Positions 39,543 through 62,760 of a stretch of DNA of 64,000 nt are shown here, one piece after another. The notes below the pieces were generated by a model, which had not been told where the DNA came from, did no database searches, and saw nothing but the letters and a program-made list of their open reading frames with translations. How positions within the stretch are numbered: the stretch's first letter is position 1; each line of letters starts with the position of its first letter. A program made the position numbers and the translations under genes. Origin of the DNA: a virus (taxonomy: Duplodnaviria; Heunggongvirae; Uroviricota; Caudoviricetes); IMG/VR virus record IMGVR_UViG_2571042390_000001, one strand, 5' to 3'.

Positions 39543-39685
39543 TGGGCTTTTTGCAACAACTGTTACCCATCACCCCGCAACACCCCGCCAACCTCACTCG
39601 TCTGTTACTAATCCTCAACCAGCGCCAGATCCCAACACCGTTTCTGCGAGCTAACAGAATTTTTGCTTTACGGTTTTTCATCGCT

Positions 39686-44007: not shown

Positions 44008-44164
44008 GTGATTTTGAGTGCGTAAATGATTTGATCAGACTTTAAGCTGCCCTCCCTTCACCTGCATTAGCGTCAGATTTCCGCTAAAAACCGCGCCCGT
44101 GTCTAGTTTCTATAGCCAGAACCATCAATACGGCTATATAAATTCACTTCATGCAGAGCCTGGG

Positions 44165-45214: not shown

Positions 45215-45217
45215 TGT

Positions 45218-46028: not shown

Positions 46029-46663
46029 GCAGAACTCCTTCTAACCAAAAGAACGCCATCTTCAGAAACAACGTTGCAGGACTTCAGGTAATTCATTGCC
46101 TCTTTCGGTAATGGATTCTTTGGATCGGCGTTTGCCAGGGATTTCGATAACCTCATGATAAATTTGATCATTACCTTCTGGCGGAGCTTGTGCTCATGAG
46201 ATAAAGACAGGTAATAGGAAATGGTATGGGCTAAACGCTCACGAAGCTGTTCTGTGCCGTGATATACAGCAGCGATATCACGCAGTGCATTGACCAGTTC
46301 CCGGTAAATATGCGGAGCAACCTGGCATTCAATGTTGGTTGGTGACTCATAAATTACAGTCAGCCCCAGCTTTTCAGCCAGCGCGTGCTCTGCGCGAGCA
46401 CCAACCGATTCTTCCCATCGATTGAGCAAGTAGATCGCATCAGCAGAACGCACCATTGCCAGGCAAATATCCATGTATTCACTCTGACAAAGGCCACCAG
46501 GTAACATAGCTGGATTCAGAACGATATGCCCTTCAGCCATCAACTCGCTCGCTTTCGCATTAAACGCCGCACGGTTGTAATCTGGATAACCAGTCATCGG
46601 CCCCGCGATGTAAATTTTCAAAACACGTTTCACCATCAAAATTTCCCCAGAATCGTGACGCAA
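46025..46663 (-). CDS. DUF4406-like (nucleoside 2-deoxyribosyltransferase-like fold) protein
   Basis: KIYIAGPMTGYPDYN motif near N-terminus. Confidence 0.45.
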   Translation of the reverse strand: MRHDSGEILMVKRVLKIYIAGPMTGYPDYNRAAFNAKASELMAEGHIVLNPAMLPGGLCQSEYMDICLAMVRSADAIYLLNRWEESVGARAEHALAEKLGLTVIYESPTNIECQVAPHIYRELVNALRDIAAVYHGTEQLRERLAHTISYYLSLSHEHKLRQKVMIKFIMRLSKSLANADPKNPLPKEAMNYLKSCNVVSEDGVLLVRRSSA

Positions 46664-46830
46664 AACATAAGCACTGCGAAAAGCTCAATACCAAGCTCAA
46701 GTAGCGCCAACGCCCCGAAAAACAACACATAGAACAGGCCAATCTCATTCACAGATGGCTGGTGGATCGCACTTAAAGCTATAAGCATCATGTCCTCCAA
46801 ACAGTTATCAGGAATGATATTAATGTTTTG

Positions 46831-46860
46831 TGTTAGAAAATCAATTTTGAATATCTAACC
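46831..46860. promoter_or_regulatory. Paired operator-like motifs in the divergent region upstream of ref
   Basis: TGTTAGAAA at 46831-46839 plus ATCTAACC at about 46853-46860; P1 ref is C1-controlled. Confidence 0.45.
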
Positions 46861-46908
46861 ATTTTGATCAATCATAGAAAAATCGTTGAAAAGTAAGAGA
46901 CTGCCATC

Positions 46909-47487
46909 ATGCAGAAACAGAGTTATTGGGAGAAACAGAGACAAAAAGCCATGCAAAAATTGGCTGACCCGGCCTGGCGAGAGGAACAAAGGGCAAAGCG
47001 CCTTCAACAAGCTCAACGCCAGCAGCAGCGAGCGAGAGAAAAAGCCGCATCGCCTGAATATCGGCAAAAGAAAATTGAAAAAGCAAAGCAATATGAACAG
47101 CGGAGAAAAGATAAAGCTGTATCCGCTCCGTCCAAAAAAACACGCACGTCACGCGGCCTGAAAGGCAGATCACTCACAGCCGATGAACGCCGGATACAGA
47201 CCGCTATCGGTGCTCTCCCCTGCATTGCCTGCCATATTCACGGGCAACATAGCCCAGTGGTATCCCTGCACCATATCTTCGGGAGAACGGCAGAGAACGC
47301 GCATAAATATGTCCTCCCTTTGTGTAAATGGCACCACCAGTACGCAGCGCCAGCCGAGGTCAGAGAACAATATCCCTGGCTGGTCCCTGTTCATGCTGAC
47401 GGAAAAATAGGCGGAAAAGCAGATTTCATGCGGCACAATGCCGATGAAATGACGTTGTATCAGATGGCGATTGAGTTGATAAATTAG
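46909..47487 (+). CDS. ref: Ref-like HNH endonuclease (recombination enhancement function)
   Basis: Highly charged N-terminus followed by Cys/His core ALPCIACHIHGQH ... LPLCKWHHQ; operator-like motif upstream. Confidence 0.6.
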   Translation: MQKQSYWEKQRQKAMQKLADPAWREEQRAKRLQQAQRQQQRAREKAASPEYRQKKIEKAKQYEQRRKDKAVSAPSKKTRTSRGLKGRSLTADERRIQTAIGALPCIACHIHGQHSPVVSLHHIFGRTAENAHKYVLPLCKWHHQYAAPAEVREQYPWLVPVHADGKIGGKADFMRHNADEMTLYQMAIELIN

Positions 47488-47488
47488 T

Positions 47489-47497
47489 TTTCTAACA
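47489..47497. promoter_or_regulatory. Operator-like motif TTTCTAACA
   Basis: Immediately after ref stop, upstream of immI-like module 2. Confidence 0.4.
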
Positions 47498-48091
47498 TTT
47501 TAAGTTGAATTGAAAAACTCTCCGATGTACATTCACTACCGATTGGCACACCGGTCAACTTTTTGAGACAAACTGTTTAGTTTTTCGTATTATTGCCTCC
47601 GCCATACCTATGGCGGTGCAATATAGGTGGCTGAAAAGCCCCCGTTGACTCACGGTGTTCCAGCCTTTATTGCGCCGCCACCAGACCGTGGAACAGTCGA
47701 TGGCGGCTCCGAAAGCAAGGAGTCACAACACTATGAACAACTACAGTCTTTTCCCATCACTCGTCTTCCACCACTCACGCGATAATCTGCATTCTTTGCT
47801 CGCGCCGGGGGTGTCAAAATGACTGTTCGCTACCTCAACTTTCAAATCAAGAACATTACTGGCGGTTGCTATGACTGGTTTGTCACTCTCGGAAAAGAAG
47901 TGATCACCGGGAAGCTGGATGAAGTGAAAGCTAAAGCAATGGCCTACGCCTGCAAGCAAGTCAGGAAGAAATCCGCCAAAGCATAAAATACTGACTGTTG
48001 CGCCCTGGCATTATCGTGGGGTATATTTCTACGGCACCTTAGAAAAACGGGTGCCGGGATTGGAACCCCGGATAATGTCAAAGGCGACACA

Positions 48092-48113
48092 GACGCCGAA
48101 CGCGTCTTTTTTT
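48092..48113 (+). terminator. Rho-independent terminator
   Basis: gacgc/gcgtc stem followed by T7. Confidence 0.5.
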
Positions 48114-48149
48114 GTGTCATGCCATCGCACAGCCATACTTAGCGTTTAG

Positions 48150-48260
48150 CTCAGAGATCAATGGTAGTGCTGGCTGGGCTGCCGAAAGGCAGGCCGGTTC
48201 CCTTTGACGCCGGTAGTTCCAACCCAGTCAGTGCTACCGCCATTGAGATTGGAACCTCAC
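48150..48260 (+). ncRNA. Candidate c4-like antisense regulatory RNA, copy 2
   Basis: Segments at about 48187-48191 and 48200-48206 complementary to RBS region of icd-like gene 2 (about 48280-48294). Confidence 0.35.
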
Positions 48261-48298
48261 GCGGTAGCTCCTTAACTTAGTCAAAGGAGGCTGCCAAT

Positions 48299-48514
48299 AT
48301 GGCTACTATCCCTACCCCAACTCATTCTGAATTTATCTGGCGTTTCTATTCCTGCCAAAAACACCTGTATATCTGCGTCATGGCTGCTACCGAAGCAGAG
48401 GCGCGCTCATACCTTCCCGAAGAACCCTGCATTTTTGCTGCTCGCTTCACTCTTGATGCGATGGAGATCCTCAATTACTGGAATCTGCCGATGAACTGCG
48501 TGGAGGTGCACTGA
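48299..48514 (+). CDS. Icd-like small protein (paralog of 8025..8249)
   Basis: SEFIWRFYSCQKH motif; stop overlaps start of downstream gene. Confidence 0.55.
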   Translation: MATIPTPTHSEFIWRFYSCQKHLYICVMAATEAEARSYLPEEPCIFAARFTLDAMEILNYWNLPMNCVEVH

Positions 48515-49455
48515 TGAATCTGTCCATCTCTCAAAAAGCGACAATGACCAGTATTGAGATCGCGGAACTGGTGGGAAGTCGTCACTCTGATGTTAAACGC
48601 AGCATCGAAAGACTTGTTGCTAAAGGAGTTATCCAACATACGCCATTGGCTACAGTTGAGAATAATCAATCACTTAGCCCTAATAAATACACAAAAGCCT
48701 ATTTCTTCGAAGGCGAACAAGGCAAGCGCGATAGTATTGTCGTCGTCGCGCAGCTCTCTCCCGAATTTACCGCCCGGCTGGTGGACCGCTGGCGCGAACT
48801 GGAGAATGCCCGGGTACAGTTAAAATCAAAAGCCGAAATCCTGGCTGAAATGGCGCAAATGCATCTTGAGCATGAACGCCGGATCAACGCCGTAAATGCC
48901 CAGGTAGCCGAGGTATCGGCACAAGTGTCCAGGGTCGCTGAAACCGTTGAGCAAATCAAGAAAGGCAATATGCCGGAAGGCTACATTGGCTACCGCCAGC
49001 TGGCGGCGAAATGTGGCCTGACTGAAGCCAAATGCCGTAACCTTGTCAACGCTTACCGGATTCCCACCGATACACATGAGTTTTTGACCCCCGATGGCTT
49101 GCTTGCGCGACGCTCCATTGTGGCCCTTGCCCCCTTCCGGAAAGCCTTTAAGCAGGTGATGTCGGAGGCAGAACCACGCAATAAACGCTGGTATCATCCA
49201 AAGATGGGGATGTTTCAGGCAATCCACCATCCTGTGCCTGAAAGCCCAAAGGATAATCTGTCACTACATACCGCCAGAGAGAAGATCAGGACTGGATACG
49301 CAACAGTGTGTCGTCGTTCTTCCTGGCCTGAAGGTATATGGGTGTGGCCCGAAGGTGGATCACGAAAGCACTGGCGCACCATCCGTGACGGGAAAATCCA
49401 TGCTATTGATTTAGCTCCAGAGGATGTTATTGCTATGGACTGGATTGTTAGTTAA
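48514..49455 (+). CDS. Rha/antirepressor-like protein fused to C-terminal DUF2829 (Tad2-family)-like domain
   Basis: N-terminal TSIEIAELVGSRHSDVKRSIERLVA; C-terminal VCRRSSW ... EDVIAMDWIVS aligns with separate ORF 8953..9153. Confidence 0.6.
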   Translation: MNLSISQKATMTSIEIAELVGSRHSDVKRSIERLVAKGVIQHTPLATVENNQSLSPNKYTKAYFFEGEQGKRDSIVVVAQLSPEFTARLVDRWRELENARVQLKSKAEILAEMAQMHLEHERRINAVNAQVAEVSAQVSRVAETVEQIKKGNMPEGYIGYRQLAAKCGLTEAKCRNLVNAYRIPTDTHEFLTPDGLLARRSIVALAPFRKAFKQVMSEAEPRNKRWYHPKMGMFQAIHHPVPESPKDNLSLHTAREKIRTGYATVCRRSSWPEGIWVWPEGGSRKHWRTIRDGKIHAIDLAPEDVIAMDWIVS

Positions 49456-49514
49456 ATGCTGCATCCCCGGCGACGCCGGGGATTTAACTGCCAAATAATC
49501 GGATTATCCGCACG

Positions 49515-49826
49515 ATGAAAAAAATAGATTTCACTTATTCTGCCGCCACACTTGAGCGGCGCTTCACCCTCATTAGAGAGTTGGAACTGTCAAAAGTCTG
49601 GTATCAAATCCTACTGGATGAAGAGTTTTCACTGATGGTTATAGCAGAAAAATTGGCTATGCCTAATGACCGGCACAAGGTCATAGCCAGCCTCGATCTG
49701 GTGACAAACAGATACTGGGAAACAGAGGAACTACATGAGGCGGGAGTAATTCGTGACCTGATGGAGAATTCCGTTCCCCGCCGCTATCGTGCAGGGAACG
49801 GCATCTCCGTGGTTAAAGGTGTTTAA
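49515..49826 (+). CDS. Hypothetical protein (103 aa)
   Basis: ORF after immI-like module 2. Confidence 0.35.
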   Translation: MKKIDFTYSAATLERRFTLIRELELSKVWYQILLDEEFSLMVIAEKLAMPNDRHKVIASLDLVTNRYWETEELHEAGVIRDLMENSVPRRYRAGNGISVVKGV

Positions 49827-50215
49827 AGCTCACCTGCGCGCTGTTTTTCAAGCACAGATTTAACATTTGGCGCTTTCCCTTTAAAAGAATGGAAAGTGCC
49901 ACATTTTTCTGTTTTAACCTCGCGCAGAGCTTCGCCATCGGCGTTCTGCCATTGATGGGATAATGTCATATCACCGCGAGAAGGAACATCCAGCGAGTAC
50001 AGCGTGTAAGTTCCCCCCATCTCCGCATACTCCTGGAACACATAGCTCATTACGTCAGATTCAGTTTTTCGGTGTGCGTTATCAACCTTATTCCCATTCA
50101 GAAATATGGCATCTGGATAGATTTTTATATCAAACCTACCGCACTTAACTTGTAAATTTCCGGCGCTCGCGATCAAAGGGAAAGACGCCAGTAAAGCAAT
50201 AGCCAATCTTTTCAA
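49823..50215 (-). CDS. Secreted (periplasmic) hypothetical protein
   Basis: Signal peptide MKRLAIALLASFPLIASA. Confidence 0.5.
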   Translation of the reverse strand: MKRLAIALLASFPLIASAGNLQVKCGRFDIKIYPDAIFLNGNKVDNAHRKTESDVMSYVFQEYAEMGGTYTLYSLDVPSRGDMTLSHQWQNADGEALREVKTEKCGTFHSFKGKAPNVKSVLEKQRAGEL

Positions 50216-50235
50216 TTCTGCCTCCGCTGCGTAAC

Positions 50236-50859
50236 TTATTGCCCGTATTTTTTACACCATTGCTCTGCCATTTGTTTGGCTAAAGGCCCGGCTACTGCAC
50301 TGTATTCTGCTGTTTTACTTTGCACACATGAAGCAGATGGTTTTTTATTTCGCTGCTCGGTTAGTTTGCGCTCATAAGCCATCATGCTATCGAACCCGGC
50401 AATATCACTTTGGCGAAGCATTCCCTTTTTAACCAAAAATTGCTGCCCCTCGGGCACCAGCGCAAGCATAAAAAGTGGTTGTAATAACTCACCTAATCCT
50501 TGCTGGCGATACACTTCGAATTGCTGCCATCCCTGACTTAATCTGGAAAGAGTATCTTTGGTTGAATAACCTGTTTTTGTTATAGCTTTGTCCGTCAGAT
50601 ATGCTGTATATGCAAAAACGCAAAAGTCAGTTTTACCAATAAACTGAGTTCCAACAGGCCGTAATGGAATGCCCTCTCTCTTGCAAAAGTCCATAATTGC
50701 CGCTTGTGAATGATCCCCACCAGCGTTATTCATAACCTGCTGCCCTGCCCTGAATTGTGCAGGTAACGCAGTTGCATTGGCTGTATTAACAGATACGCAT
50801 CCCAACATAGCCGCGAGCGCGGTCCCTAAAACCCTTAACTTCACTACACCGTCCTTCAT
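50236..50859 (-). CDS. Secreted protein or lipoprotein, hypothetical
   Basis: Signal peptide with possible lipobox-like LGC. Confidence 0.5.
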   Translation of the reverse strand: MKDGVVKLRVLGTALAAMLGCVSVNTANATALPAQFRAGQQVMNNAGGDHSQAAIMDFCKREGIPLRPVGTQFIGKTDFCVFAYTAYLTDKAITKTGYSTKDTLSRLSQGWQQFEVYRQQGLGELLQPLFMLALVPEGQQFLVKKGMLRQSDIAGFDSMMAYERKLTEQRNKKPSASCVQSKTAEYSAVAGPLAKQMAEQWCKKYGQ

Positions 50860-51076
50860 GTAAACAAAATGAAGTTTTATGTTACAAAAACAATCAACTA
50901 CATCAACATGATTTAGGCCAAATTTCGGTCAAAAAATAAAATCCACAAAAAGTGGTTGACACTATTTTGGAAATCACAAACTGCACATAATCCATCGCGC
51001 TAACGGCTCCCGTTGAAGGTTCTTTTGACGATTAACTTTCAGCCGAAGCGCGGTAGGGAGTCATAACGCCAAAGCA

Positions 51077-51100
51077 GGCCGCCATGTGCGGCCTTTTTTT
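51077..51100 (+). terminator. Terminator-like hairpin with T-run
   Basis: ggccgc/gcggcc stem followed by T7. Confidence 0.45.
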
Positions 51101-51127
51101 GTATCCGTCATCCGTGGAGGAAGGACA

Positions 51128-51781
51128 ATGGAGAAGATAGCAATATTCAGCCTGACCACCAGCAAACCGCAAATGCTCACTGCAATACTGAAAGACGGTG
51201 CTCTCGTGATTAACGAAGTAAAACCCCTTCCCGCGTCAGCATTGGAACAAAAGCAAAAGATTCCTCCAGCTATAGCAGCCCTGCGGAAAAGCAAATTTAA
51301 GGTGCTGGTAGACGAAATTACGCCAACGATCTCCGCTGGCACCGGAGCAAGCCAGGTAACACTCAAGACACGTCATGCCGACGGCAGAGCTGCGATCATC
51401 GTAGGGATGGAAAGATACAGAGAGCTAAAACTCCAGAAGCTATTATCCCTGCCGCAAAACAATAAAGGTGCTTTCGAAATTCCCGACTCCATCGTTGACA
51501 CCGAATACAACGGTAACGGAGAAGAAGTTTACCGGGTGAACTGGCAGGATATTAGGCCGGAACATATTTTGATGATCCTGTGTTGCTACGCGACCGTATA
51601 CCACAATGTTGCCAGTGCGGATTACGTAGAGCAGATGACCGGTACAGTCGAGAAAGAGCAAAAAACAGGCATACTCGCTTCGTTCCTGTCCATTATTGGG
51701 CATGAAAAAGTTAAAGCAGGCACCTCCCAGCCAAAGTCGCTGACTGGGAAAGAAGTTGATGAAGATACCGTGATACTTTGA
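51128..51781 (+). CDS. Hypothetical protein (217 aa)
   Basis: ATG with GGAGGAAGG RBS; track ORF starts further upstream. Confidence 0.45.
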   Translation: MEKIAIFSLTTSKPQMLTAILKDGALVINEVKPLPASALEQKQKIPPAIAALRKSKFKVLVDEITPTISAGTGASQVTLKTRHADGRAAIIVGMERYRELKLQKLLSLPQNNKGAFEIPDSIVDTEYNGNGEEVYRVNWQDIRPEHILMILCCYATVYHNVASADYVEQMTGTVEKEQKTGILASFLSIIGHEKVKAGTSQPKSLTGKEVDEDTVIL

Positions 51782-52117
51782 TCACATTAGTAGCTTTGTT
51801 AACTCCCTCAATACCAGGTAGAAGAGTAACAAAAACACTGACGTGGATACCTGCTGAGTTAAAGAAGCACTAATAAATTTATTCAATAAATCAATCAGCT
51901 TATTAAAAATATTCATCTTTTCGAATCCATTCGATCGGTAAATAACACCCAGCTCACTATCGAGCTGGTCCACGCCTTAAGATTAATGAAAGTCACTTGT
52001 TGACAGTCAATAAATTCCAGGGTGGCGAAAAAACTCTGTCTATACGGATAGTGCTTGCATTTTACTCTTTCTGTGTGTAGCGTATATACACAGGTTGCAC
52101 GCACGAATGGAATTATT

Positions 52118-52399
52118 TTGATTAAGTCATTTCGCCATAAAGGGCTTGAACGCTTTTTCAAGACAGGTTCAACCGCAGGCATTCAGGCCAAACATGCGGT
52201 TAAGCTACGCATTCAATTGACTGCGCTTAATACAGCTAAACGCCCGGACGATATGTCTGCGCCTGGATGGGAATTGCACCCTCTAAAGGGGGCGGACCTT
52301 AAAGGTCACTGGGCAATATCGGTAAACGGTAACTGGCGACTTACCTTCCGATTTGAAGGAGAAGACGCAATTCTAGTTGACTATCAGGATTATCATTGA
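52118..52399 (+). CDS. higB: HigB-type toxin (RelE/ParE superfamily)
   Basis: [14 protein letters not shown] ... [10 protein letters not shown] ... [11 protein letters not shown] ... VDYQDYH; probable TTG start. Confidence 0.75.
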
Positions 52400-52689
52400 G
52401 GAACACTATGAGTCGCATGCATAATCCCGCGCATCCAGGCGCGGTTCTTCGTGAATATTTGGGAGACATGTCAGTCACAGACGCCGCTGCGGCATTAGGC
52501 ATTACTCGCACGGCGCTTTCCCGAATTCTGAATGAAAAAGCAGGTATATCTGCTGATATGGCACTTCGTCTGGAGTCCGCTCTTGGAACCAGTGCCGAAA
52601 TGTGGACCGGTATGCAATCCCAGTATGAGCTTTGGGTTGCTTCGCAAACCACTCGCCCAAACATCCGTCCATTATTTTTCCACGCATAA
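52396..52689 (+). CDS. higA: HigA-type antitoxin (XRE-family HTH)
   Basis: [10 protein letters not shown] ... [25 protein letters not shown]; overlaps higB stop. Confidence 0.75.
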
Positions 52690-52694
52690 TTTCA

Positions 52695-52727
52695 CAGCGT
52701 CACCAGGCCTGGTGACGCTGCTTTCTC
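52695..52727 (+). terminator. Terminator-like hairpin after higA
   Basis: 10-bp stem cagcgtcacc/ggtgacgctg; weak T-run. Confidence 0.45.
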
Positions 52728-52781
52728 GCATTTCACACCCTGCATACAGTTTCCCCCAGGTTATGACTGAGGGGCTTTGTT

Positions 52782-53111
52782 ATGGGCTATAGCAGACTCG
52801 ACGATAGGTACATTGAAGACGATATTTTTCGTGCGCTGTTTCACCAGGAAATGATTAAGCGGGTATCGGAGTATCACTCTGATAATTTCCAGTACACGAT
52901 AAAGATTGATGAAGTATATCGTTCAGACCTTGCAGCCTACAGGGCGTATGGCAATGCAGATTTGCGCTGGGTATTCCGGGTGCTGGTGGGCCATGAGTCA
53001 GAAATGGAAGAAATGCCCGCAGGGACCACGTTAACTCTTCCTGATGTGGCATGGCTGAGGAACAAGATCCGTGATTACGCAAGCGCGGAACCGGAGATAG
53101 AAAATGCCTGA
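52782..53111 (+). CDS. Hypothetical protein (109 aa)
   Basis: Overlaps start of downstream SWIM-like gene (operon). Confidence 0.4.
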   Translation: MGYSRLDDRYIEDDIFRALFHQEMIKRVSEYHSDNFQYTIKIDEVYRSDLAAYRAYGNADLRWVFRVLVGHESEMEEMPAGTTLTLPDVAWLRNKIRDYASAEPEIENA

Positions 53112-54297
53112 TTTCCTGAAAAACCAGGACGGGCGCTATATCACTGACGGTCTGTCCTCTAAGGACTTCACGCGTATATTCGAGCTTATCAGGAAAGAAC
53201 AAACCCGTAAGCGCCGACAAGCTCACCGGACGCTGACGCCAGGTAGACTGAGGAACAAATCCGCCGAAGATATTCTCAAGTTAGGGAAGAAAAAAGGCGG
53301 CACGTTCTTCACGCGAGACGACCTGAAAGGTTTCGAAAAGCTACGGAGTAAAACACGCGAAAAATATGACAGCAAGACGGCTGGCATCACATACGCCCAG
53401 CTGGTGGCATCCAGCCAGGCAATCGATATTAAGCGTGCAAATAACGCCGTGGATGACGGATCTGGTATCAAAAGAGCTACCCCCGTATCTCTTCGCCACA
53501 ACGTGATTAATATCCGCGTAGAAGCATCGGATATATCCGTCCACCAGCACCATATCGTCCGGATACGCTTTGAAGAATGGGATCAGATGGTCGATGACAT
53601 CGCAGAAGACGATAAATCAGCTCTCAAAATCACTAAATCACTGTGCGCCGGGCGAGTGTCTTTCGATTGTGACTGTGGTCGTCATCAATACTGGTATCGT
53701 TACATCGCTACTGCGGGTAACTTTGCCCTGGCCCCGCCAAAAGAATACGCCTATCCAAAAGTTCGTAACCCTAAGCTACAAGGCGTCGCCTGTAAACACG
53801 TGATCCACTCAATGACGCGGTTACAGTCCGCAAGTTGGCAAATGAGTATTGCTCGTGCACTACAAAAGGCTGCAACGCAAATTGCATTTGGTGACGATCG
53901 CCGCCGTACAACCAAACACTTCTCAAAAGAAGACGAGAAGGAGTTTAATCGCAATCGTAGCAGTAAAACGAACGTTGACGCTGCCAAGCGAGAATGGAGA
54001 CTCTATCAGAAGCGCCAGGCCGCTTTAAGCACAAAACTGGCAAAGGACAACGGCAAGATTGACAAGCTACGTGACCAACTGACCAAGGCCAGAAAGTTGT
54101 CAGACGCACAGAAAAAACGGGCGGCAGCAAAAGAAGCGGCGTTGCAACGTGAGAAACAGAAAAACAAGGAGCTTCAGCAACGCCTGGCCGATCAGTTCGC
54201 ACTGAAGAAGCAGGCGTTTATTGATGCGCTTGTCATGGCAGGAACGCCACAAGAACATGCTGAAAAAATGTTTATGGCGTATGTAAAAAAAGCATAA
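53104..54297 (+). CDS. SWIM-like zinc-finger protein with basic coiled-coil tail (397 aa)
   Basis: CDCGRH ... (37 aa) ... CKHVIH CxC...CxH arrangement; Lys/Arg-rich C-terminus. Confidence 0.45.
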   Translation: MPDFLKNQDGRYITDGLSSKDFTRIFELIRKEQTRKRRQAHRTLTPGRLRNKSAEDILKLGKKKGGTFFTRDDLKGFEKLRSKTREKYDSKTAGITYAQLVASSQAIDIKRANNAVDDGSGIKRATPVSLRHNVINIRVEASDISVHQHHIVRIRFEEWDQMVDDIAEDDKSALKITKSLCAGRVSFDCDCGRHQYWYRYIATAGNFALAPPKEYAYPKVRNPKLQGVACKHVIHSMTRLQSASWQMSIARALQKAATQIAFGDDRRRTTKHFSKEDEKEFNRNRSSKTNVDAAKREWRLYQKRQAALSTKLAKDNGKIDKLRDQLTKARKLSDAQKKRAAAKEAALQREKQKNKELQQRLADQFALKKQAFIDALVMAGTPQEHAEKMFMAYVKKA

Positions 54298-54308
54298 ACC
54301 ACACATAT

Positions 54309-54340
54309 AGCCTGGTGGTCTATGCCAGGCTTTCACTTTT
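54309..54340 (+). terminator. Terminator-like hairpin between convergent genes
   Basis: agcctgg/ccaggct stem followed by T-rich run. Confidence 0.45.
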
Positions 54341-55112
54341 CTGATAAATCAGTTTGCATTTCAGAATACAATCGAGAAATATCAGAGAACAATTCATTAA
54401 AATCAGTACTATAGAATGATGTTTTCTTTATTGCTGCAATAAAATCATATAAATCCTGCGGAGTTTCAATTTTACATTTCCTATTCTCATACAGAGTAGG
54501 CAAAATGTGAATATTTTTATATGTAAGCGTTATGGCATCATCAAACCTTTCTTTCATTTTATCATATTTTTCTTTTTCATCTTCTATTTTGTTTAAAATG
54601 TCTTCCAGTTCTTTTTTTCTTTCATCCAGCTTTTGTTGGCTATAGCTAGCCTCTATTTCACGCTCAGCTCTTTTCTTGGCTCTTTTTGCTAATTTCTCTT
54701 TCTCGTTTTCGTCTGTTTTATTGTCCAAAATTTTTATTTTATAGTACACCTTAGTTGTAATGCAAGATACCGCAAGTGTAATTACTGGTGCCACAATCGA
54801 CGCAATCACACCATAGAAAAACGGCAAGAAAAAGTGGGCAAACCAAGGAGGTAAAATCTCGCCATCAAGAAATTGTATTTTTTCACCGGTAAAAACTATT
54901 GACAGAGTATATAGAACATCTTCTTTTGATTTGAACAAAATTAATATATCTCTCCAGTTAACAACCAGAAAAGATATAAAAATATATGCAAAAAGCTTAT
55001 TAAATACTTTATCTTTTATAACATATTCCATTGTATTCTTGACGGAATCAACAACGGACTCATTTTCTTTATCTGATTCAGATGTCTTCTTTACTGATGA
55101 ATCTGTACTCAT
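54333..55112 (-). CDS. AT-rich membrane protein with C-terminal charged coiled coil; candidate toxin or abortive-infection effector
   Basis: Long ORF in AT-rich DNA; predicted TM segments (FAYIFISFLVVNW; FFLPFFYGVIASIVAPVITLAV); K/E-rich heptads; directly downstream of HigA-like gene. Confidence 0.5.
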   Translation of the reverse strand: MSTDSSVKKTSESDKENESVVDSVKNTMEYVIKDKVFNKLFAYIFISFLVVNWRDILILFKSKEDVLYTLSIVFTGEKIQFLDGEILPPWFAHFFLPFFYGVIASIVAPVITLAVSCITTKVYYKIKILDNKTDENEKEKLAKRAKKRAEREIEASYSQQKLDERKKELEDILNKIEDEKEKYDKMKERFDDAITLTYKNIHILPTLYENRKCKIETPQDLYDFIAAIKKTSFYSTDFNELFSDISRLYSEMQTDLSEK

Positions 55113-55175
55113 ATATGCTACCAAATTTCTAGTATCTATTTTTTATAAAAACAGCGGTCATCCAGACCGCAAAAC

Positions 55176-55535
55176 TCAAACGCCAACCAGGCTTTCCAGT
55201 GGAATACCAAACTGGGCATGTAAACGACGAATCATAGGTAACGTCAAATTTCGTGTCCCATTAAGCACTTCGTAAACACGGTTTGACTTACCAATTGCCG
55301 GTTCCAGATCCTTCACGGTCAGTCCTTGCAGTTCCATACGGAATTTAATGGCCTCAATAGGTGATGGTGGCTCAATTGGGTAATGTTTTTTCTCGTACTC
55401 CTCAATGAGAAGACACATAACCTCAAAGAAATCACCTTCCGGAGTATTCATTTCCGGTTCGTTATCGAACATCGGTTCGACCGCACGCAGTGCGGCCTCA
55501 TAATCTTGTTCTGTACGGATAGGTTTAATGTTCAT
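55176..55535 (-). CDS. HigA (E. coli YgjM-type)-like antitoxin/HTH regulator, no cognate HigB adjacent
   Basis: C-terminal IGKSNRVYEVLNGTRNLTLPMIRRLHAQFGIPLESL parallels E. coli HigA (IGSKSMVSRVLSGKRKLTLEHAKKLATRFGISPALF) as recalled. Confidence 0.6.
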   Translation of the reverse strand: MNIKPIRTEQDYEAALRAVEPMFDNEPEMNTPEGDFFEVMCLLIEEYEKKHYPIEPPSPIEAIKFRMELQGLTVKDLEPAIGKSNRVYEVLNGTRNLTLPMIRRLHAQFGIPLESLVGV

Positions 55536-55591
55536 TAATTACAAAGGAAAGCCCACTTGCTAAGTGGGCTTTTTGTATGTGTTTTACTATA

Positions 55592-55930
55592 TCAGGCTGC
55601 TTTTTTATTCAGGTTCCGCTGAGAAATAAATTTTTCAGCAGTATTGATACGACTTAACTCTTCCTGAACGCGCATATCATTTTCGACTTCCCACAGATCT
55701 ACTGCGGTCTGAAGATTAATCCAAAAATCTACAGAAGTATCGAATGCTTTTGCCAGGCGATATGCCATATCCATCGTTAGCTTACGATTATTATTAACAA
55801 GAGCACTTACGGTGTTACGATGAACATGAAGTATTTCTGCTAACTCGTTGATCTTCAGCTCTAACGGCTCCAGGTATTCGTACAGCAGGATATCACCTAC
55901 GGTCGTCGGTTTTCTGGTTGCCTGTTTCAT
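55592..55930 (-). CDS. higA: HigA-family antitoxin (XRE HTH)
   Basis: TVGDILLYEYLEPLELKINELAEILHVHRNTVSALVNNNRKLTMDMAYRLAKAFDTSVDFWINLQ. Confidence 0.7.
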   Translation of the reverse strand: MKQATRKPTTVGDILLYEYLEPLELKINELAEILHVHRNTVSALVNNNRKLTMDMAYRLAKAFDTSVDFWINLQTAVDLWEVENDMRVQEELSRINTAEKFISQRNLNKKAA

Positions 55931-56000
55931 TTTTTGCCCTTACTAGCGTGCGTATTAAGTGGACTCTGGTCAGAACCCGGTCCGTAACCGGGTATCTGTT

Positions 56001-56303
56001 TTAGTATTTGTGAGGGTCGAGATACAAGTCCTCGGCCTTTCCGTTAACCCACTTAAAAATTAACCTATATTGCTTATTCACCCTTACTGATGAATAGCCA
56101 TTTAGCTTCCCTGACAGTTCCTCATACCGATTACCTGGTGGTGATCTTAAATCCTTACAGGTAGTTGCGGCATTGATAATGTCCAACTTCCGTGACAATG
56201 TCATATGAATATCAGGAGGTATCTTTCTATGTGGTGTTGAAAATTCAAAAAAATCATCAAGCCACGCATCCCTGAAATCCTTTATGTTAATTTTTTTGGT
56301 CAT
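56001..56303 (-). CDS. higB: HigB-like toxin (RelE/ParE superfamily)
   Basis: PPGNRYEELSGKLNGYSSVRVNKQYRLIFKW ... LYLDPHKY; upstream of its HigA. Confidence 0.7.
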   Translation of the reverse strand: MTKKINIKDFRDAWLDDFFEFSTPHRKIPPDIHMTLSRKLDIINAATTCKDLRSPPGNRYEELSGKLNGYSSVRVNKQYRLIFKWVNGKAEDLYLDPHKY

Positions 56304-56465
56304 TAGTCATTTGATCCTCCGTGATGATTACCGAATGCCATAACTATAGCGCACCGTTGCACTGTGCGCAAGTGCATTTTATGAATTCCCCCTCCTTCAT
56401 CCAAAATCACAATCTCCCGAAAATCTTCCTTTCGATACCTGACAGATCGACCTTTGAGGATGCTT

Positions 56466-57257
56466 ATGGGCCGTTTTGACGAATGGTTTGCTGACGATGC
56501 AAACCTGGCAAGTAAGGAGTCAGAACATGACAGCACGCAGAGAGAAACGCCAGCGCCGATTGAAGCGAATGCAGGAGGCGCGCCGGAACATGGCAATACC
56601 GGTTCGGATTCATTCAGCATTCTGGAAGAGCAACCCGCCGCCAAAGCTGATAGCCATGATAATTTTGCTGATAGCAACGGTGGCCTTACTCCGGATGCTG
56701 GCGAATCAGATATAGCCATACTTCCATCTTCCCTGGCTGGCAGAGAACCGACTCCACAGTTAAAAGCACGCTATAACGGGCATAAAGCCTTTAACGACCA
56801 AATCCGCGCAGACTGGATGCTGATTATTGAATCCAGCCCAGACGCGTTTCAGGCTCTCTTATATCGACCAGATGTTGGCACATATGGGGTAGTCAGCGAC
56901 GAAACAGGAGAAGAGTCATTCACTGAACTGGATAACAACCAACGCGAACTGACTTACCAGGAACCTGAAATCGTTTATGTGCTGGATAACCCTGACGGGC
57001 GTGACTCTTTCCATGCGATTGACGCAGACGGTGAGCAGGATGGCTTAACCGATGATGTTCTGATTCTGCGTATTGCAGCAAATAACGTCCCCGTCGGCTC
57101 AATTCTTGAATGGAATGAAGAGATGGTAAACGGCGTAGCGCGCCGCTGGTGGTACGTGCACCGTATTTTTAGCTACGGCACACAGCATGTTGGTTCGCTT
57201 TACTACTGCATACCTGCCAGGAATTTTGATACGACTCAAAACGGAGTGATCGAATGA
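56466..57257 (+). CDS. Hypothetical protein (acidic N-terminal half)
   Basis: ATG with GAGGA RBS; first of four tightly linked plus-strand ORFs. Confidence 0.4.
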   Translation: MGRFDEWFADDANLASKESEHDSTQRETPAPIEANAGGAPEHGNTGSDSFSILEEQPAAKADSHDNFADSNGGLTPDAGESDIAILPSSLAGREPTPQLKARYNGHKAFNDQIRADWMLIIESSPDAFQALLYRPDVGTYGVVSDETGEESFTELDNNQRELTYQEPEIVYVLDNPDGRDSFHAIDADGEQDGLTDDVLILRIAANNVPVGSILEWNEEMVNGVARRWWYVHRIFSYGTQHVGSLYYCIPARNFDTTQNGVIE

Positions 57258-58021
57258 CTTCAAATAAAACCCTCCTGGCGCGAACAGGTGAATGGCAAAC
57301 CTCACGCACAGGAAAATTCCAGACCACGGGCTTTGAAAACGTGGATAACGCGTTTGCGACGCTAATCAGCAACATTTTTTCTGATATCTTACTGGTGGCC
57401 CCCGCGCCGGAAGAAAAACGCTTTGCGTCATTCCTGAATCGTCCACCAGCAGAGCGTGTCTATGTGGCCCGTTTCGACAATGCGATCGAGTTTCTTAAAG
57501 CAGTTCGTCGCGCAAATGCCGGGCAAGGGAGAAAACCTGAAAACCAGAACATTAACCGGGATGCTCTCCCCCTGGTCAATATCTCACGCACTATGGATAT
57601 CAATTATATCAACGATGATCAGCAGATTGACCGCAAAAAAGTAGCCAGTTTTTGCGAACCGGATACCGGAATGCCTTTAGCAGAACTGGAATACACCCAG
57701 GCCATTCTGACGTATGACGTTACGTTAATGGCAACTGATAAAGCGACCATGAGTCTGATGTGTAATTCGCTGGGCGCACGGCTTCGCCTGATGACAGGTA
57801 CACAATTTGAAGCAACCACTCACCTTGTTCGTGTCCCGGTCCCGCTGATTTGCTCGATACAGGATGCCAAAGAAGTCGGCTTTACGGATGTTTCAGCACC
57901 AATTGGAGAAGAGCGTATTTATGCCACACAAGCGCCGATAAGTGTGATTGCAGACGTGATCACAGCATGGGAGTTGGACGCAAAACGTATTATTACCGAA
58001 ACCTCGATATCTATGGGGTGA
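57254..58021 (+). CDS. Hypothetical protein (255 aa)
   Basis: Start overlaps upstream stop. Confidence 0.45.
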   Translation: MTSNKTLLARTGEWQTSRTGKFQTTGFENVDNAFATLISNIFSDILLVAPAPEEKRFASFLNRPPAERVYVARFDNAIEFLKAVRRANAGQGRKPENQNINRDALPLVNISRTMDINYINDDQQIDRKKVASFCEPDTGMPLAELEYTQAILTYDVTLMATDKATMSLMCNSLGARLRLMTGTQFEATTHLVRVPVPLICSIQDAKEVGFTDVSAPIGEERIYATQAPISVIADVITAWELDAKRIITETSISMG

Positions 58022-58024
58022 TAA

Positions 58025-59005
58025 GTGGCCCAGGAGTTACAACAATATTTTCTACAGTCAGTGCTCATTAACGATAACAAAGTGCCTCGAGACTGGATTT
58101 TTACCGCAGTATATGTAGAAAAAACCAGCCTCAAAGCCCCTTTGCTAAAACTGGAAATTCATGACGCTACCGGCACCGTAATTGATGACTGGAAAGCCAA
58201 ATACGGTGCATCGCTGGTGGCTGAAATGGGCGATCCAAACGGTAATGCAGGCACTTTTAAAACAGATTTCTTTGTTACGTCTGCAATGCTGGCTGGTGAT
58301 GTTGTTACCGTTATTGCTGTCAGTGAAGACGTGCGCAGGTTTAAGATCCCCTCCCCGCGCACAAATTTACATACCAACAAAACACCAGACGCTATATTCA
58401 AGGCATATTCCGGCAAGCTTAAAATTACCAGCAGCGTGCTAAAACGCGCAGTTACATATCATCTGAATGCCGGTGACAAACCGTCAAAAATGCTTTCGGA
58501 GATAGCGCGAGACAAAGGTGCATTATGTTGGGTATGCCGGGGGGAATTTAACTTTTACACCCTGGCTGATCTGATGAAGCAAACGCCATCATTTACCTAC
58601 GAGGGGAATAACCCTAAAGCAGAATACACTTTGTCCAAAATGCGCCTACTCCAACAGGAACATGCGACAACAGCAAAGAATCAATATCGTTTTGTTGGGT
58701 ATTCCATGACCGATGGCTACGTCGAATATGGCGATAGCTCACTCCCAGTGCGTTATATATCCGACTCTGATATGGAAACTCTTCGCAATATGCAGCTGTC
58801 TCTCGTCCCCAAAATGGATATAGAAGTCGCAGGCAATCCTGATATAAAACCGGGGATGGTAATAGAGATTATCGTATACCGCTATGACCAGGAAAACCGC
58901 ATTGATGAATCAATGCCCCGTAAGCTGATAGTAAAAAATGTTGCGCACTTTGAGGACCGCGTAGGCTACACAACACGAATGATATTAGGAGTGCCGAACA
59001 AATGA
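58025..59005 (+). CDS. Hypothetical protein (326 aa), possible baseplate/tail-associated
   Basis: Context only: immediately upstream of gpV-like spike ORF. Confidence 0.45.
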   Translation: MAQELQQYFLQSVLINDNKVPRDWIFTAVYVEKTSLKAPLLKLEIHDATGTVIDDWKAKYGASLVAEMGDPNGNAGTFKTDFFVTSAMLAGDVVTVIAVSEDVRRFKIPSPRTNLHTNKTPDAIFKAYSGKLKITSSVLKRAVTYHLNAGDKPSKMLSEIARDKGALCWVCRGEFNFYTLADLMKQTPSFTYEGNNPKAEYTLSKMRLLQQEHATTAKNQYRFVGYSMTDGYVEYGDSSLPVRYISDSDMETLRNMQLSLVPKMDIEVAGNPDIKPGMVIEIIVYRYDQENRIDESMPRKLIVKNVAHFEDRVGYTTRMILGVPNK

Positions 59006-59655
59006 AGCGTAGAGCGCAAATTGTTGGAACTGTGCACCCGGCAGGGCTTATGCGTGCTCAAGTCCGTGTTTTACCTGACTGGAATGGCGTTCCTGATGAC
59101 GATCTACCCTGGGCGGAATACCTGTTACCCATCGGAAACGCTTTTGTACCCACAGTCAAAGGTGACCTGGTCTGGGTAGAGTTTCCTTATTTAGATGTTA
59201 ACGGTCGAATAGACACCAGACGCCCAATGATAGTTGGTGCCGCTCAGGATGCACCGGGAGGAATTCCAAACGTTGCACCAGAAGCATCTGGCAAAGGCAA
59301 CGGCTGGACGCCGCCGGAAGTAGATGGAGCACCTCCCCGCCCCCAAATCTCAGCAACGAAAGACTTCGTTATTCACCGCAACAATATTCTTGAAGTACGA
59401 ACTGCTGGTGGCGGCTATGAAATTGCCAATACGGCAGCAGGCTCAAGGATTGGCATGAATGAGTCCGGGCAGATATATATCATTGGTCCGGCTGATGTAA
59501 TCGTGAATGCAGGAGGGAGTGTTAACGTCAAATCAGCCAACAACATCAATGTTAATGGGGAAAATATTGCTGTCACCGCTAACGGGGACATAGCTTTCAA
59601 GGCAGGGGGAACCTTTCAGGCCACTGCTGGCAACTTCGATTTCAAGAAAGGATAG
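59002..59655 (+). CDS. gpV/gp5-like baseplate spike-type protein
   Basis: N-terminal VKGDLVWVEF ... RRPMIVGAA OB-fold-like motif and C-terminal G/N/V-rich beta-helix-like repeats. Confidence 0.5.
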   Translation: MKRRAQIVGTVHPAGLMRAQVRVLPDWNGVPDDDLPWAEYLLPIGNAFVPTVKGDLVWVEFPYLDVNGRIDTRRPMIVGAAQDAPGGIPNVAPEASGKGNGWTPPEVDGAPPRPQISATKDFVIHRNNILEVRTAGGGYEIANTAAGSRIGMNESGQIYIIGPADVIVNAGGSVNVKSANNINVNGENIAVTANGDIAFKAGGTFQATAGNFDFKKG

Positions 59656-59664
59656 AAAATGCAC

Positions 59665-59708
59665 CCATTTGTGTTAGATAATTAACGCGTATTTTCTAAC
59701 ACAAATGG
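59665..59708. promoter_or_regulatory. Palindromic operator-like site upstream of hrdC-dmt
   Basis: ccatttgtgttaga ... tctaacacaaatgg perfect inverted repeat containing the core motif twice. Confidence 0.55.
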
Positions 59709-59714
59709 TGAGAA

Positions 59715-60620
59715 ATGAGATCAGTCGCTTTCAAAAATATCTTCATCTATCGTCTTTCACGCGAAGTTAGCTGGGATACTGCAGAAGTAAATGCAGCCCT
59801 TAGCAAGTTTGTGTTTACCCCATGCGGTTCTCAGGATATGGCTAAAGCTGGTTGGACCTCCGTTCTTGGTGACAACCTCACACATGAATACCAGGGTTTT
59901 CTGCTAATACAGCATAAGCGAGAAGAAAAAATTCTCCCCTCGCAGGTGCTCAAGGAAGAGTTGCAGAAAAAAGTCCTGAAACTCGAAGAAGAGCAAGCCC
60001 GCAAGCTGAAGAAAACGGAAAGAGACAGTCTTAAAGATGAAGTCCTGCATTCACTTTTGCCTCGCGCGTTCACGAGAAAATCACTTGCCAAAATCCTGAT
60101 CGACCGCAGCAACCATCTGGTATTCGTTGAGGCAAGCAGCGCCAAAAAGGCAGAGGACCAGCTGGCTTTATTGCGAAAATCGCTCGGCAGCCTGCCTGTC
60201 ATTCCATTCACACCACGCGAACCGCTGGAAATTACAATGACCGAGTGGTTTAAAAGCGGCTTCCCTGCCGGATTTACAGCAGGTGAAGACGCCACATTAA
60301 AGGGTCTGCTCGATAATGGTGGTGCCGTTCGCTGCAACAAAGTTGATCTACAGTCCGACGAGATTATGTCTCACATTGAGGCGGGGAAAGTAGCTACGAC
60401 CGTTGCAATTAACTGGATGGAACGCGCGTCGTTCAGAGTCAACGATGATATGAGTATCAAAGCCCTGACATTCTGTGATGATCTCTATGACCAGAATGAC
60501 GATATCGACCGGGAGGATGTAGCACAACGATTTGATGCTGATTTCGTGCTCTTTACGGGCGAATTATCTGCACTGTTTAACGCGCTGGTGGAGGCCATTG
60601 GCGGTGAAGCAGAACGTTAA
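59715..60620 (+). CDS. hrdC: RdgC homolog (P1 hrdC-like recombination-associated protein)
   Basis: N-terminal [12 protein letters not shown] ... [14 protein letters not shown] matches the RdgC family; precedes dmt as in P1. Confidence 0.7.
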
Positions 60621-62760
60621 CCTTCGATATGGTTCAGTTTGCAGTGGAATTGAAGCCGCGAGCATTGCCTGGGAACCGTTGGGTATGCGTCCGGCGTGGT
60701 TTGCTGAAATTGAGCCTTTTCCATCTGCCGTTCTTGCGCACCGCTGGCCTCATATCGCCAACCTTGGCGATATGACAAAACTTGCCAAAAAAGTCCTGGC
60801 TGGGGAAATCGAATCCCCTGATGTGCTCGTCGGGGGAACACCTTGTCAGGCATTCAGTATCGCGGGATTACGTGGTGGGCTTGATGATGAGCGCGGCGCG
60901 CTAACTTTGAAGTATGTGGAGCTTGCAAATGCAATTGACGACAAACGGTCTGAGTCCTTCCTCAAACCGACAGTTATCGTCTGGGAAAATGTCCCAGGAG
61001 TCCTGTCATCGGCAGATAACGCCTTCGGATGTTTCCTTGCCGGATTGGCTGGAGAAGATGCACCATTTGAACCAGGTGATCGACCTGAATCAGGAAAAAG
61101 TAACGCGTTCTGGCGGTGGGATGGCAAAACCGGTTGCCATGCTCCAAAGTGGCCGCAGTGTGGTTGTATTTATGGACCGCAGCGAAAGGTGGCCTGGAGA
61201 ATACTTGATGCCCAATACTTCGGAGTGGCACAACGACGCCGACGCGTGTTTGTTGTCGCAAGTGCTCGAACAGACCTCGATCCCGCAACGGTACTTTTTG
61301 AGTTCGAAGGCGTGCGCCGGGATATTGCGCCGAGCAGAGGCGAGGGGAAGGAAGTTGCCGGAAATGTTGGAAATGGCATTAAAAGCGGGAGCCATTGGGA
61401 TAACCCTGTAAATCCTCACCCGACACTTGCCCGATCGCACAATACCGGCGGGACGGGTGCAAGCAACCAGGAGATTTTTTCACAGCGCGGAAGTGGGCTT
61501 GTCGGTGCTTACCGGATGGTAGCATTTGGTGAGTATGCGGATGATGAGGCGGCTTCCACGGTCAAGGCCAGAGATTTTAAGGATGCAACCGACCTGGCTG
61601 TTTTTGACAGTGCGAACGTCGGAGTGGCAGTACGTCGCTTAACGCCTGTCGAGTGCGAACGCCTGCAGGGCTTTCCTGACGGGCACACGTTGATCCCTAC
61701 GGAAAAGCGTAAAAAAGTTTCTTCAGATGAACTGGCATACCTTCGCAATCACTATCCAGATTTAAGCGAAGAAGAGGCCGCGATGCTTGCAGCTGACGGA
61801 CCGCGTTACAAAGCGATCGGCAACAGCATGGCAGTTCCTGTTATGCAATGGATAGGGTGTCGCATTCTTGCGACCGTAGCGGATAAACAGCAAAAAACAA
61901 TAAATACCATTACCTACACAAGAAAACTCCGGACTCCGGATGAATATGAACGCCCAATATTCAAATGGGTAGGCGGTAAATTCTCAGAGTTGCCTACAGT
62001 GCTTGAGCATCTACCACACGGCAAGCGGTTAATAGAACCATTCGTTGGTGGCGGTTCCGTATTTACGAATGCAGGATTTCGCCACAACCTGCTTAATGAT
62101 ATTAACGGTGACCTGATTAACTTCTATCAGACATTGCAGCGAGAGGGACATTCGCTCGTCACGCTGGCATATAGTTTTTTCAAAAATTACAACAACGCTG
62201 ACGCTTACCTCGAAGTGCGCGAGGCATTTAACAGAGGAAAGTATGACCAGCTACATCATGCTGCCGCCTTTTTGTACCTTAATCGGCACTGTTTTAATGG
62301 CGTAACGCGGTACAACCAAAATGGCGAGTTCAACGTGGGGTATGGCAAATACAAAGCGCCCTACTTCCCACATGCAGAGATGGAGGCATTTTTGGCTGAT
62401 GACGTACTCAAAAACACGTCCTTTGTATCAGGTGACTTTGCTGGCGTCATCGAGGCGGCTGGTGAAGGCGATGTGATTTTTTGCGATCCGCCGTATGAAC
62501 CGCTGCCGGATACAGAAGGGTTTACCAGTTATTCAGGAAATAGCTTCCGTTTCGACGAACAGAAACGGCTGGTATCTCTATTGGTGGAAGCCCACCAGCG
62601 CGGCGCTAAGGTAGTGATAACAAATAGTGGTGCGCCAAACATCCGTGAACTATATGAACGAAACGGGTTTAAAGTACATCATATGGCAGCCAGACGGTCG
62701 GTGTCCTGCAAGGCGTCAACACGTGTAGTTGCTAACGATATAATTGCAATAATGAAGTAA
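60604..62760 (+). CDS. dmt: Dmt-like bifunctional DNA methyltransferase (C5-cytosine domain fused to Dam-like N6-adenine domain)
   Basis: N-terminal [11 protein letters not shown] (motif IV) C5-MTase; C-terminal KWVGGK and DPPY Dam-type motifs; probable GTG start with GGAGG RBS. Confidence 0.8.

Follow-up and report, generated by a model that had tools for sequence, protein, structure and literature searches.

The viral record IMGVR_UViG_2571042390_000001 (64,000 nucleotides; this whole stretch is called the window throughout) is a D6-like phage-plasmid of the P1g2 group, P1-related but not P1 itself, and its segment 52055-56303 carries two toxin-antitoxin (TA) pairs of the HigB/HigA type. 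We consider it probable that this segment consists of two conserved phage genes, the orthologues of P1 genes 26 and 25, flanked by two independent cargo slots that hold canonical addiction-type higBA pairs. The most likely role of these pairs is post-segregational killing together with competition between related plasmids. A first-pass annotation had described the segment as one accessory island interrupting a P1-like backbone; the TA modules are indeed variable cargo within a conserved P1-type tail/baseplate block, but they occupy two slots and the element is D6-like. The second slot also holds an orphan antitoxin, which appears to be the leftover of a PF09907-type higBA pair whose toxin gene was replaced by the pair now present.

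Genes 26 and 25 are backbone between two cargo slots

Escherichia phage D6, the reference of the P1g2 group among P1-related phage-plasmids, matches positions 49500-58500 at 97% identity over 71% of the query, and about 140 plasmids of roughly 90 kb each from E. coli, Salmonella and Shigella match the same region. The best plasmid match, NZ_CP058619, is 99.9% identical there, and its RefSeq annotation agrees with the coordinates of the TA genes (Table 1). Slot breakpoints were mapped with blastn by comparing the window with D6, four plasmids and P1. Relatives' loci that were compared with the window are labelled with L-numbers (L002, L009, L027 and so on).

The two proteins encoded between the TA pairs both match tail PHROGs, and their genes occur in every relative examined, P1 and D6 included, and their nucleotide identity stays at 95-98% where higBA-1 is missing or slot 2 holds other cargo. 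In P1, gp25 is among the virion-associated proteins, and gp26 is predicted to form part of the baseplate core (PMC9024508). Both genes count as backbone rather than cargo, and since 52782-54297 consists of these core orthologues, the segment 52055-56303 resolves into two cargo insertions on either side of a backbone stretch. Comparison with P1 and the relatives, as a check on whether the whole region is invariant core, gave a divided answer: the TA parts are variable, and the middle third is invariant. The first-pass annotation had counted the pair among the accessory genes, as a 109-aa protein next to a SWIM-like one, and this assignment falls; the 397-aa protein has no Pfam match to the SWIM zinc finger (PF04434) at E<=0.01. 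A SWIM-like CxC...CxH Cys/His motif, FDCDCGRHQYWYRY...GVACKHV, is present in the gp25 orthologue (53104-54297) and conserved in P1 gp25.

Slot 1 holds a self-contained higBA cassette

The breakpoints of slot 1, which is flanked by mat and baseplate gene 26, are identical against D6 and the four plasmids (five D6-like relatives). Where the window has 721 bp, the empty slot in these relatives has a 52-bp hairpin. Both HigB/HigA pairs proposed in the first-pass annotation (52118-52689, plus strand; 56303-55592, minus strand) are borne out by profile matches above the cutoffs: PF05015 scores are 74.3 bits for higB-1 and 120.5 bits for higB-2 against a cutoff of 27, and both antitoxins exceed the 47.7-bit TIGR02607 HigA equivalog cutoff. 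In slot 1 the toxin gene comes first and is separated from higA-1 by 8 bp. HigB-1 aligns end to end with 4MCT_B and keeps His54 and the C-terminal Asp-Tyr-His; we take the catalytic residues of Rts1 HigB to be His54 and Asp90-Tyr91-His92.

Neither D6 nor most relatives have the higBA-1 cassette. Among PLSDB plasmids matching slot 1 it is carried by 16 of about 116 D6-like records (~14%), and IncF plasmids of 215-242 kb carry a copy of its core (52052-52685) at 89% identity. The cassette is also found in 40 of 5426 complete E. coli genomes, as 32 plasmid copies and 9 chromosomal ones, some beside insertion sequence (IS) elements. Other relatives fill slot 1 with an IS3-family element (L033) or a different TA pair (L027). 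Slot 1 probably received a self-contained unit, with a palindrome-bearing promoter, an Rts1-type HigB, a HigA and a terminal hairpin, from a gene pool shared by plasmids and chromosomes.

Slot 2 is an antisense insertion in the late tail operon

Against relatives whose slot 2 cargo differs, the alignment breaks off near position 54290, just short of the stop codon of gene 25 (54297), and picks up again at 56404, leaving 62 bp to the start of gene 7. Only 3 bp lie between genes 25 and 7 in P1 and in Cronobacter phage JK004; in the window, 2.1 kb of antisense cargo come between them. This adjacency in P1 and JK004 marks the slot 2 block as a D6-lineage-specific insertion, placed antisense in the late 26-25-7-24-6-5 tail/baseplate cluster. 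Slot 2 has the features of a moron: P1 and JK004 lack the insertion, terminator-like hairpins accompany it, and its GC content is 31-45% against 48% for the backbone; promoters were assigned by eye. Terminator-like sites are frequent in the region (18 vs 4.7 expected), and such hairpins bound the units of slot 2. In a sigma-70 scan, promoter-like sites were no more numerous than in shuffled sequence (9 vs 10.5 expected). An Rfam search of 51500-56700 returned only a sub-threshold Trp_leader match on a terminator hairpin, and no RNA antitoxin or riboswitch. Because terminator-like hairpins read on the plus strand (54309-54331 and 55546-55574) should halt late transcripts arriving from gene 25, genes 7-24-6-5 probably need their own promoter in the conserved stretch 56404-56465. 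Neither the sigma-70 scan nor comparison with the P1 LP26 late promoter recognised one in the 62 bp upstream of gene 7.

The resident pair, higB-2 and higA-2, has the same toxin-first order as the pair in slot 1, and HigB-2 ends in ...DPHKY. Its closest structural match is a chain of PDB 6F8S, which we take to be the Pseudomonas putida GraTA complex. The spacer between the two genes (55931-56000) is unusually long, 70 bp, with a GC-rich hairpin at 55975-55993. By eye, a 7-codon mini-ORF (ATGACTAATGACCAAAAAAATTAA; 56296-56319, minus strand) overlaps the higB-2 start codon, and the GGAGGA ribosome-binding site is spaced for this mini-ORF rather than for higB-2, which may dampen toxin translation.

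The orphan antitoxin points to stepwise replacement of a TA module

The first-pass annotation had noted an orphan HigA-like gene in this slot, and its product does resemble K-12 HigA (Table 1). The 119-aa protein (HTH119, for its helix-turn-helix (HTH) domain) is identical at 118 of 119 positions to the copy in L002 and L009, where the gene lies 4 bp downstream of a 100-aa PF09907 HigB (E=3e-34). The same placement, 4 bp 3' of a PF09907 HigB, is found for copies of 98-99% identity in L002, L009, L029-L031, L033 and L034, and conjugative plasmids of Enterobacter and Pectobacterium carry a PF09907 higB-HigA pair of 82-86% identity as a two-gene module. The window has no PF09907 toxin open reading frame: here the orphan is preceded by higA-2 and a terminator. 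Similarity with L002 runs out at 55542, 7 nt 5' of the orphan ATG, and the tail of the terminator takes the place of the GGAG ribosome-binding site of L002. L002 has two palindromes of the GTCCCA-N4-TGGGA type ahead of its PF09907 toxin gene; neither has a match anywhere in the 64-kb window. The orphan reading frame itself is intact, with a ratio of nonsynonymous to synonymous substitution rates (dN/dS) of 0.04-0.09.

We surveyed slot 2 in IMG/VR by retrieving loci through alignment of the membrane protein encoded next to the orphan, which yielded 22 viral loci and one chromosomal locus; the counts of slot 2 states are drawn from 21 IMG/VR D6-like loci. The state found in the window, higBA-2 with a full-length orphan, occurs in six loci (plus one with a frameshifted orphan), and higBA-2 with an orphan truncated to residues 1-65 in nine. 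Five loci carry the PF09907 higB and HigA, with the membrane gene, as do L002 and L009. One locus, the divergent relative L032 (gp25 at 81% identity), has a different PF09907 HigB (103 aa), a K-12-like HigA (139 aa) and the membrane gene. In PLSDB, about 89 records have the truncated orphan and about 18 the PF09907 toxin (>=95% identity). An unrelated 179-aa gene annotated as 'stationary phase growth adaptation protein', which has no Pfam match, occupies slot 2 instead or additionally in L008 (4372-4911; E. marmotae plasmid NZ_CP056699) and L027 (5793-6308).

The distribution of these states across relatives gives the direction of the change: the PF09907 pair with the membrane gene is the older arrangement, and higBA-2 is the later replacement of its toxin gene. 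The window, D6 and L003 have exactly the same higBA-2 pair (100% identity) against a 3% difference in gp25, and window and D6 differ by one single-nucleotide polymorphism (SNP) in 55416-56470 vs 21 in 55130-55415. Both contrasts indicate that higBA-2, together with the 5' end of the orphan, spread recently by recombination. From these comparisons we propose that slot 2 first held a PF09907 (K-12-type) higB-higA pair followed by the membrane gene. A complete PF05015 higB-2/higA-2 pair with its own terminator would then have replaced the PF09907 toxin gene and its promoter, leaving the antitoxin orphaned from its operators and ribosome-binding site. In most relatives the orphan would since have been truncated.

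Slot 1 of L027 (IMGVR_UViG_2563366977_000001) is a second, independent case of a toxin replaced and the old antitoxin kept. In its positions 8157-9081, which correspond to window 52001-52689, a Gp49-like toxin (PF05973) and an XRE antitoxin stand in place of higB-1 and its promoter. From 52407, the nucleotide directly preceding the higA-1 ATG, the contig matches the window again, and its orphan higA-1 (95% identical) overlaps the stop codon of the new antitoxin. This arrangement was seen on a single contig and was not found in PLSDB.

The higBA-2 pair and the host ybaQ locus have the same probable operator core

HigB-2 and HigA-2 have chromosomal counterparts in E. coli at the higB-1/ybaQ locus, whose toxin shares 80% identity with HigB-2 and whose YbaQ shares 78% with HigA-2. 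The regions upstream of higB-2 (56340-56390) and of the chromosomal higB-1 (L036, 2114-2245) contain the same 18-bp palindrome, TGCACTTGCGCACAGTGC. Among the 5426 E. coli genomes a ybaQ homologue is present on 4832 chromosomes (~89%), in most of them as an orphan, K-12 and O157:H7 included; the upstream toxin is also present in about 400. The chromosomal locus lies between copA and ybaP and has the gene order of higBA-2. It differs from the phage-plasmid pair, which lies antisense in a tail operon, in having a toxin-antitoxin spacer of 35 bp rather than 70 bp, and most E. coli keep only the orphan ybaQ, unlike the complete pair here.

In E. coli that carry the chromosomal toxin, ybaQ is essential, and a CRISPR interference (CRISPRi) screen found that ybaQ knockdown derepresses the toxin (bioRxiv 10.1101/2020.05.25.114553). 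By analogy, these data, in which the chromosomal pair acts like a TA system, are the best available experimental support for higBA-2 as a working TA pair. The sequence identities also suggest that host YbaQ may cross-react with, or cross-regulate, the higBA-2 of the phage-plasmid.

The membrane gene varies next to constant neighbours

The first-pass annotation was right about an AT-rich membrane gene in slot 2: its GC content is 30.8% against 47.8% for the window, and its product has two hydrophobic segments (residues ~40-60 and ~90-122) and, after them, a helical tail rich in charged residues. Alleles of this gene are only 38-63% identical beside flanking genes that are 97-100% identical, and most of the differences fall in the C-terminal domain, which is predicted to be cytoplasmic. 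An exhaustive profile search placed the family in 30 clusters among 1.84 billion representatives (a word-index search gave 5). None of these homologues has a Pfam domain, and the matches to PHROG 8191, 13369 and 4780 are all without assigned function. An AlphaFold2 model from a 6-sequence alignment was unusable (mean predicted local distance difference test score (pLDDT) 41, predicted template modelling score (pTM) 0.24).

A TA module precedes the membrane gene in every D6-like locus retrieved. The gene is missing from the E. marmotae slot and from beside the PF09907 pair on the conjugative plasmids, and a lone homologue (33% identical) lies on the chromosome of Enterobacter sp. CC120223-11 (L013, 5007-5690) between the acid-shock gene asr and an M32 carboxypeptidase gene, with no TA or phage genes nearby. 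We infer that the membrane gene is a separate, lysogen-expressed cargo, possibly encoding a superinfection-exclusion or sensing protein.

Relation to known systems

HigB-1 is about 55% identical to the toxin of Rts1 HigBA (PDB 4MCT/4MCX), and both systems have toxin-first order, an HTH-XRE antitoxin and a low-copy plasmid replicon. Unlike the Rts1 system, higBA-1 is a 721-bp cassette in a phage-plasmid, and HigA-1 is nearer to the PDB 6F8S antitoxin than to Rts1 HigA. The higBA of phage D6 (orf70/orf71) encodes proteins 100% identical to those of higB-2/higA-2 at the same position between genes 25 and 7, with orf72 and orf73 as neighbours. The window differs from D6 in carrying higBA-1, where D6 has the 52-bp hairpin, and a different membrane-gene allele (45% identity). 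The orphan shares the architecture of the HigA of K-12 HigBA (YgjN/YgjM; PF09907 toxin), an N-terminal helical domain and a C-terminal HTH; unlike that system, the window keeps the antitoxin only, without a PF09907 toxin or the palindromes of L002 type.

The orphan is also similar to the HTH portion at the N-terminus of PD-Lambda-2_B (E=1e-41), and a HigB-like gene lies upstream of it in relatives, as in the defence system PD-lambda-2 (Vassallo et al. 2022). In contrast to that system, the match spans only positions 1-119 of 402, and there is neither an ImmA/IrrE peptidase nor a P4-antitoxin-like third gene. The phd-doc system of P1, a type II addiction module of a plasmid-prophage, is likewise present in the window; it is unrelated to higBA by family (a Fic/Doc kinase toxin versus RelE-fold RNases) and lies at a different locus. 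With phd-doc, the first-pass count of at least three type II TA systems holds: three pairs are complete, and one orphan antitoxin adds to them.

Function and alternative explanations

By homology, each HigB would be a ribosome-dependent mRNA endonuclease with a RelE fold, kept inactive by its HTH antitoxin, which would also repress its own operon at the promoter palindrome. On loss of the plasmid-prophage, the presumably labile antitoxin would decay, and the toxin would arrest or kill the cured cell. The higBA pairs and phd-doc would in this way stabilise a low-copy prophage, and TA alleles at a fixed slot would favour the element over incompatible D6-like rivals with a different allele. The literature on D6-like elements already counts phd-doc and higA-higB as killing systems (PMC6799933). 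Some observations weigh against a pure addiction role of independent cargo. The intact orphan, with its low dN/dS, may still be useful rather than a mere decaying remnant; the constant linkage of membrane gene and TA module might reflect a slot 2 that functions as one larger unit; and the ~89% carriage of ybaQ, with 78% identity to HigA-2 and an identical probable operator core, could blunt HigB-2 killing in most hosts.

That the whole of 52055-56303 is a single contiguous accessory or defence island, as TA genes at both ends and the low GC of slot 2 might suggest, is extremely improbable, given that its centre is the P1 gene 26/25 backbone, well conserved in relatives with differing cargo, and that the two slots vary independently. 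It is unlikely that the modules serve mainly against phages in the lysogen, HigB by abortive infection and the membrane protein by superinfection exclusion, with addiction secondary. Tail-gene regions can harbour membrane morons that exclude phages, such as HK97 gp15, the antisense cargo with its own terminators resembles a lysogen-expressed moron, and the hypervariable C-terminal domain of the membrane protein beside near-identical flanks would fit such a role. PD-lambda-2, which derives from HigB/HigA, does defend against phage (PMC9519451). However, PADLOC reports no system, the only strong match, that of the orphan to PD-Lambda-2_B, covers the HTH part and lacks the peptidase domain and the third gene, and we found no published defence by canonical PF05015 HigBA pairs; the unusable structure model adds nothing for the membrane protein. 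The first-pass annotation had called stacked TA modules typical of defence or addiction islands; for a defence island we found no evidence.

The place of the orphan, always directly upstream of the membrane gene and with an intact reading frame of low dN/dS, would also suit a working regulator of that gene in a two-gene module. We judge this very unlikely: the same protein (98-99% identical) adjoins a PF09907 HigB in seven of the relatives' loci (L002, L009, L029-L031, L033 and L034), the related pair on conjugative plasmids lacks the membrane gene, the commonest variant has the orphan cut to residues 1-65 beside an intact membrane gene, a terminator-like hairpin separates the two genes, and the Enterobacter chromosome has the membrane-gene homologue alone. 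It is unlikely, too, that the orphan is kept as an anti-addiction device with which the element displaces D6-like plasmids carrying PF09907 higBA without killing the host. The near identity (118/119) of the orphan to the cognate antitoxin of the rival allele speaks for this, as does the independent origin of the same pattern at slot 1 of L027. The orphan, however, lacks a promoter, operators and a Shine-Dalgarno sequence and follows a terminator, it is truncated in the most abundant lineage, its low dN/dS may partly predate the replacement, and the second example is one contig, absent from PLSDB. We give similarly little weight to a wider form of the idea, in which D6-like elements may swap a toxin for a new TA pair and keep the old antitoxin as anti-addiction immunity against siblings, and in which the orphan ybaQ of the host, whose wide conservation has been puzzling, could persist because it neutralises and represses HigB-2. 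Addiction-type cargo in two independent slots remains the reading we prefer.

The TA families and the phage-plasmid lineage are known, and the higBA-2 pair is already published for D6; experiments are worthwhile on two points only, the stepwise replacement with its orphan antitoxins and the connection to ybaQ of the host. What changes is the map, with genes 26 and 25 as backbone and the cargo in two slots, and the exact cargo boundaries could serve the engineering of D6-like or P1-like vectors. TA replacement that leaves orphans makes two ideas testable, TA-mediated competition among incompatible phage-plasmids and an anti-addiction role of the E. coli orphan ybaQ.

Feature coordinates and further variable regions

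Table 1 Features of the two cargo slots, the backbone between them and neighbouring genes in the window.
Feature	Coordinates	Strand	Evidence or remark
Slot 1 cargo, 721-bp higBA-1 cassette	52001-52721		blastn breakpoints 52000/52001 and 52721/52722
Inverted repeat CTGTGTGTA-N5-TATACACAG upstream of higB-1, candidate HigA-1 operator	52071-52093	+	proposed role
higB-1 toxin, Proteus vulgaris Rts1 HigB type	52118-52399	+	PF05015 E=1e-20; PDB 4MCT_B E=4e-23
higA-1 antitoxin, HTH-XRE	52408-52689	+	TIGR02607 98.6 bits; PDB 6F8S_A E=1e-13
Perfect 26-bp palindrome (hairpin) closing the cassette	52695-52720		self reverse-complement match; read from sequence
P1 gene 26 orthologue (baseplate), 109 aa	52782-53111	+	41% identity to P1 gp26, E=6e-23; PHROG 1269; D6 annotation
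P1 gene 25 orthologue (tail), 397 aa	53104-54297	+	56% identity to P1 gp25, E=3e-137; PHROG 1722 E=4e-196
Slot 2 cargo block, antisense to late operon, between genes 25 and 7	54298-56403		homology breakpoints; gene 25-7 adjacency in P1 and JK004
Terminator-like hairpin between convergent gene 25 and membrane gene	54309-54331		
AT-rich protein, two predicted transmembrane segments	54333-55112	-	hydropathy profile
Terminator-like hairpin between orphan higA and membrane gene	55154-55170	-	
Orphan K-12-type HigA, 119 aa (HTH119)	55176-55535	-	PDB 5IFG/5YCL E=2.5e-7
Terminator hairpin after higA-2, 12 nt before orphan higA start codon	55548-55572	-	reads as terminator on + too
higA-2, YbaQ-type antitoxin	55592-55930	-	TIGR02607 102.5 bits; PDB 2EBY (E. 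coli YbaQ) E=1e-53
higB-2 toxin	56001-56303	-	PF05015 E=4e-35, full profile; PDB 6F8S_B E=3e-14
Palindrome TGCACTGTGCGCAAGTGCA in higBA-2 promoter, probable HigA-2/YbaQ operator	56358-56376		
mat	51086-51781		D6 annotation and direct comparisons
Gene 7	56466-57257		D6 annotation and direct comparisons
Genes 24, 6, 5, hrdC/rdgC	downstream of 57257		D6 annotation and direct comparisons
phd-doc	33616-34223	-	PF02604 E=3e-13, PF02661 E=3e-9; outside 52055-56303

The window is mosaic relative to NZ_CP058619: 99.6% identity is confined to 44106-60620, and the stretches 980-3701, 35438-37615, 39151-41927 and 60621-61929 are without a near match. A third variable site lies at 49786-50801, where two secreted-looking proteins (130 and 207 aa), matching PHROG 13864 and 12786 (both PHROGs without assigned function), are encoded in place of D6 orf80 and a simB-like gene. 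Paralogous icd/ant-like segments at about 8237-8923 and about 48502-49209 cross-match each other at 76-86%.

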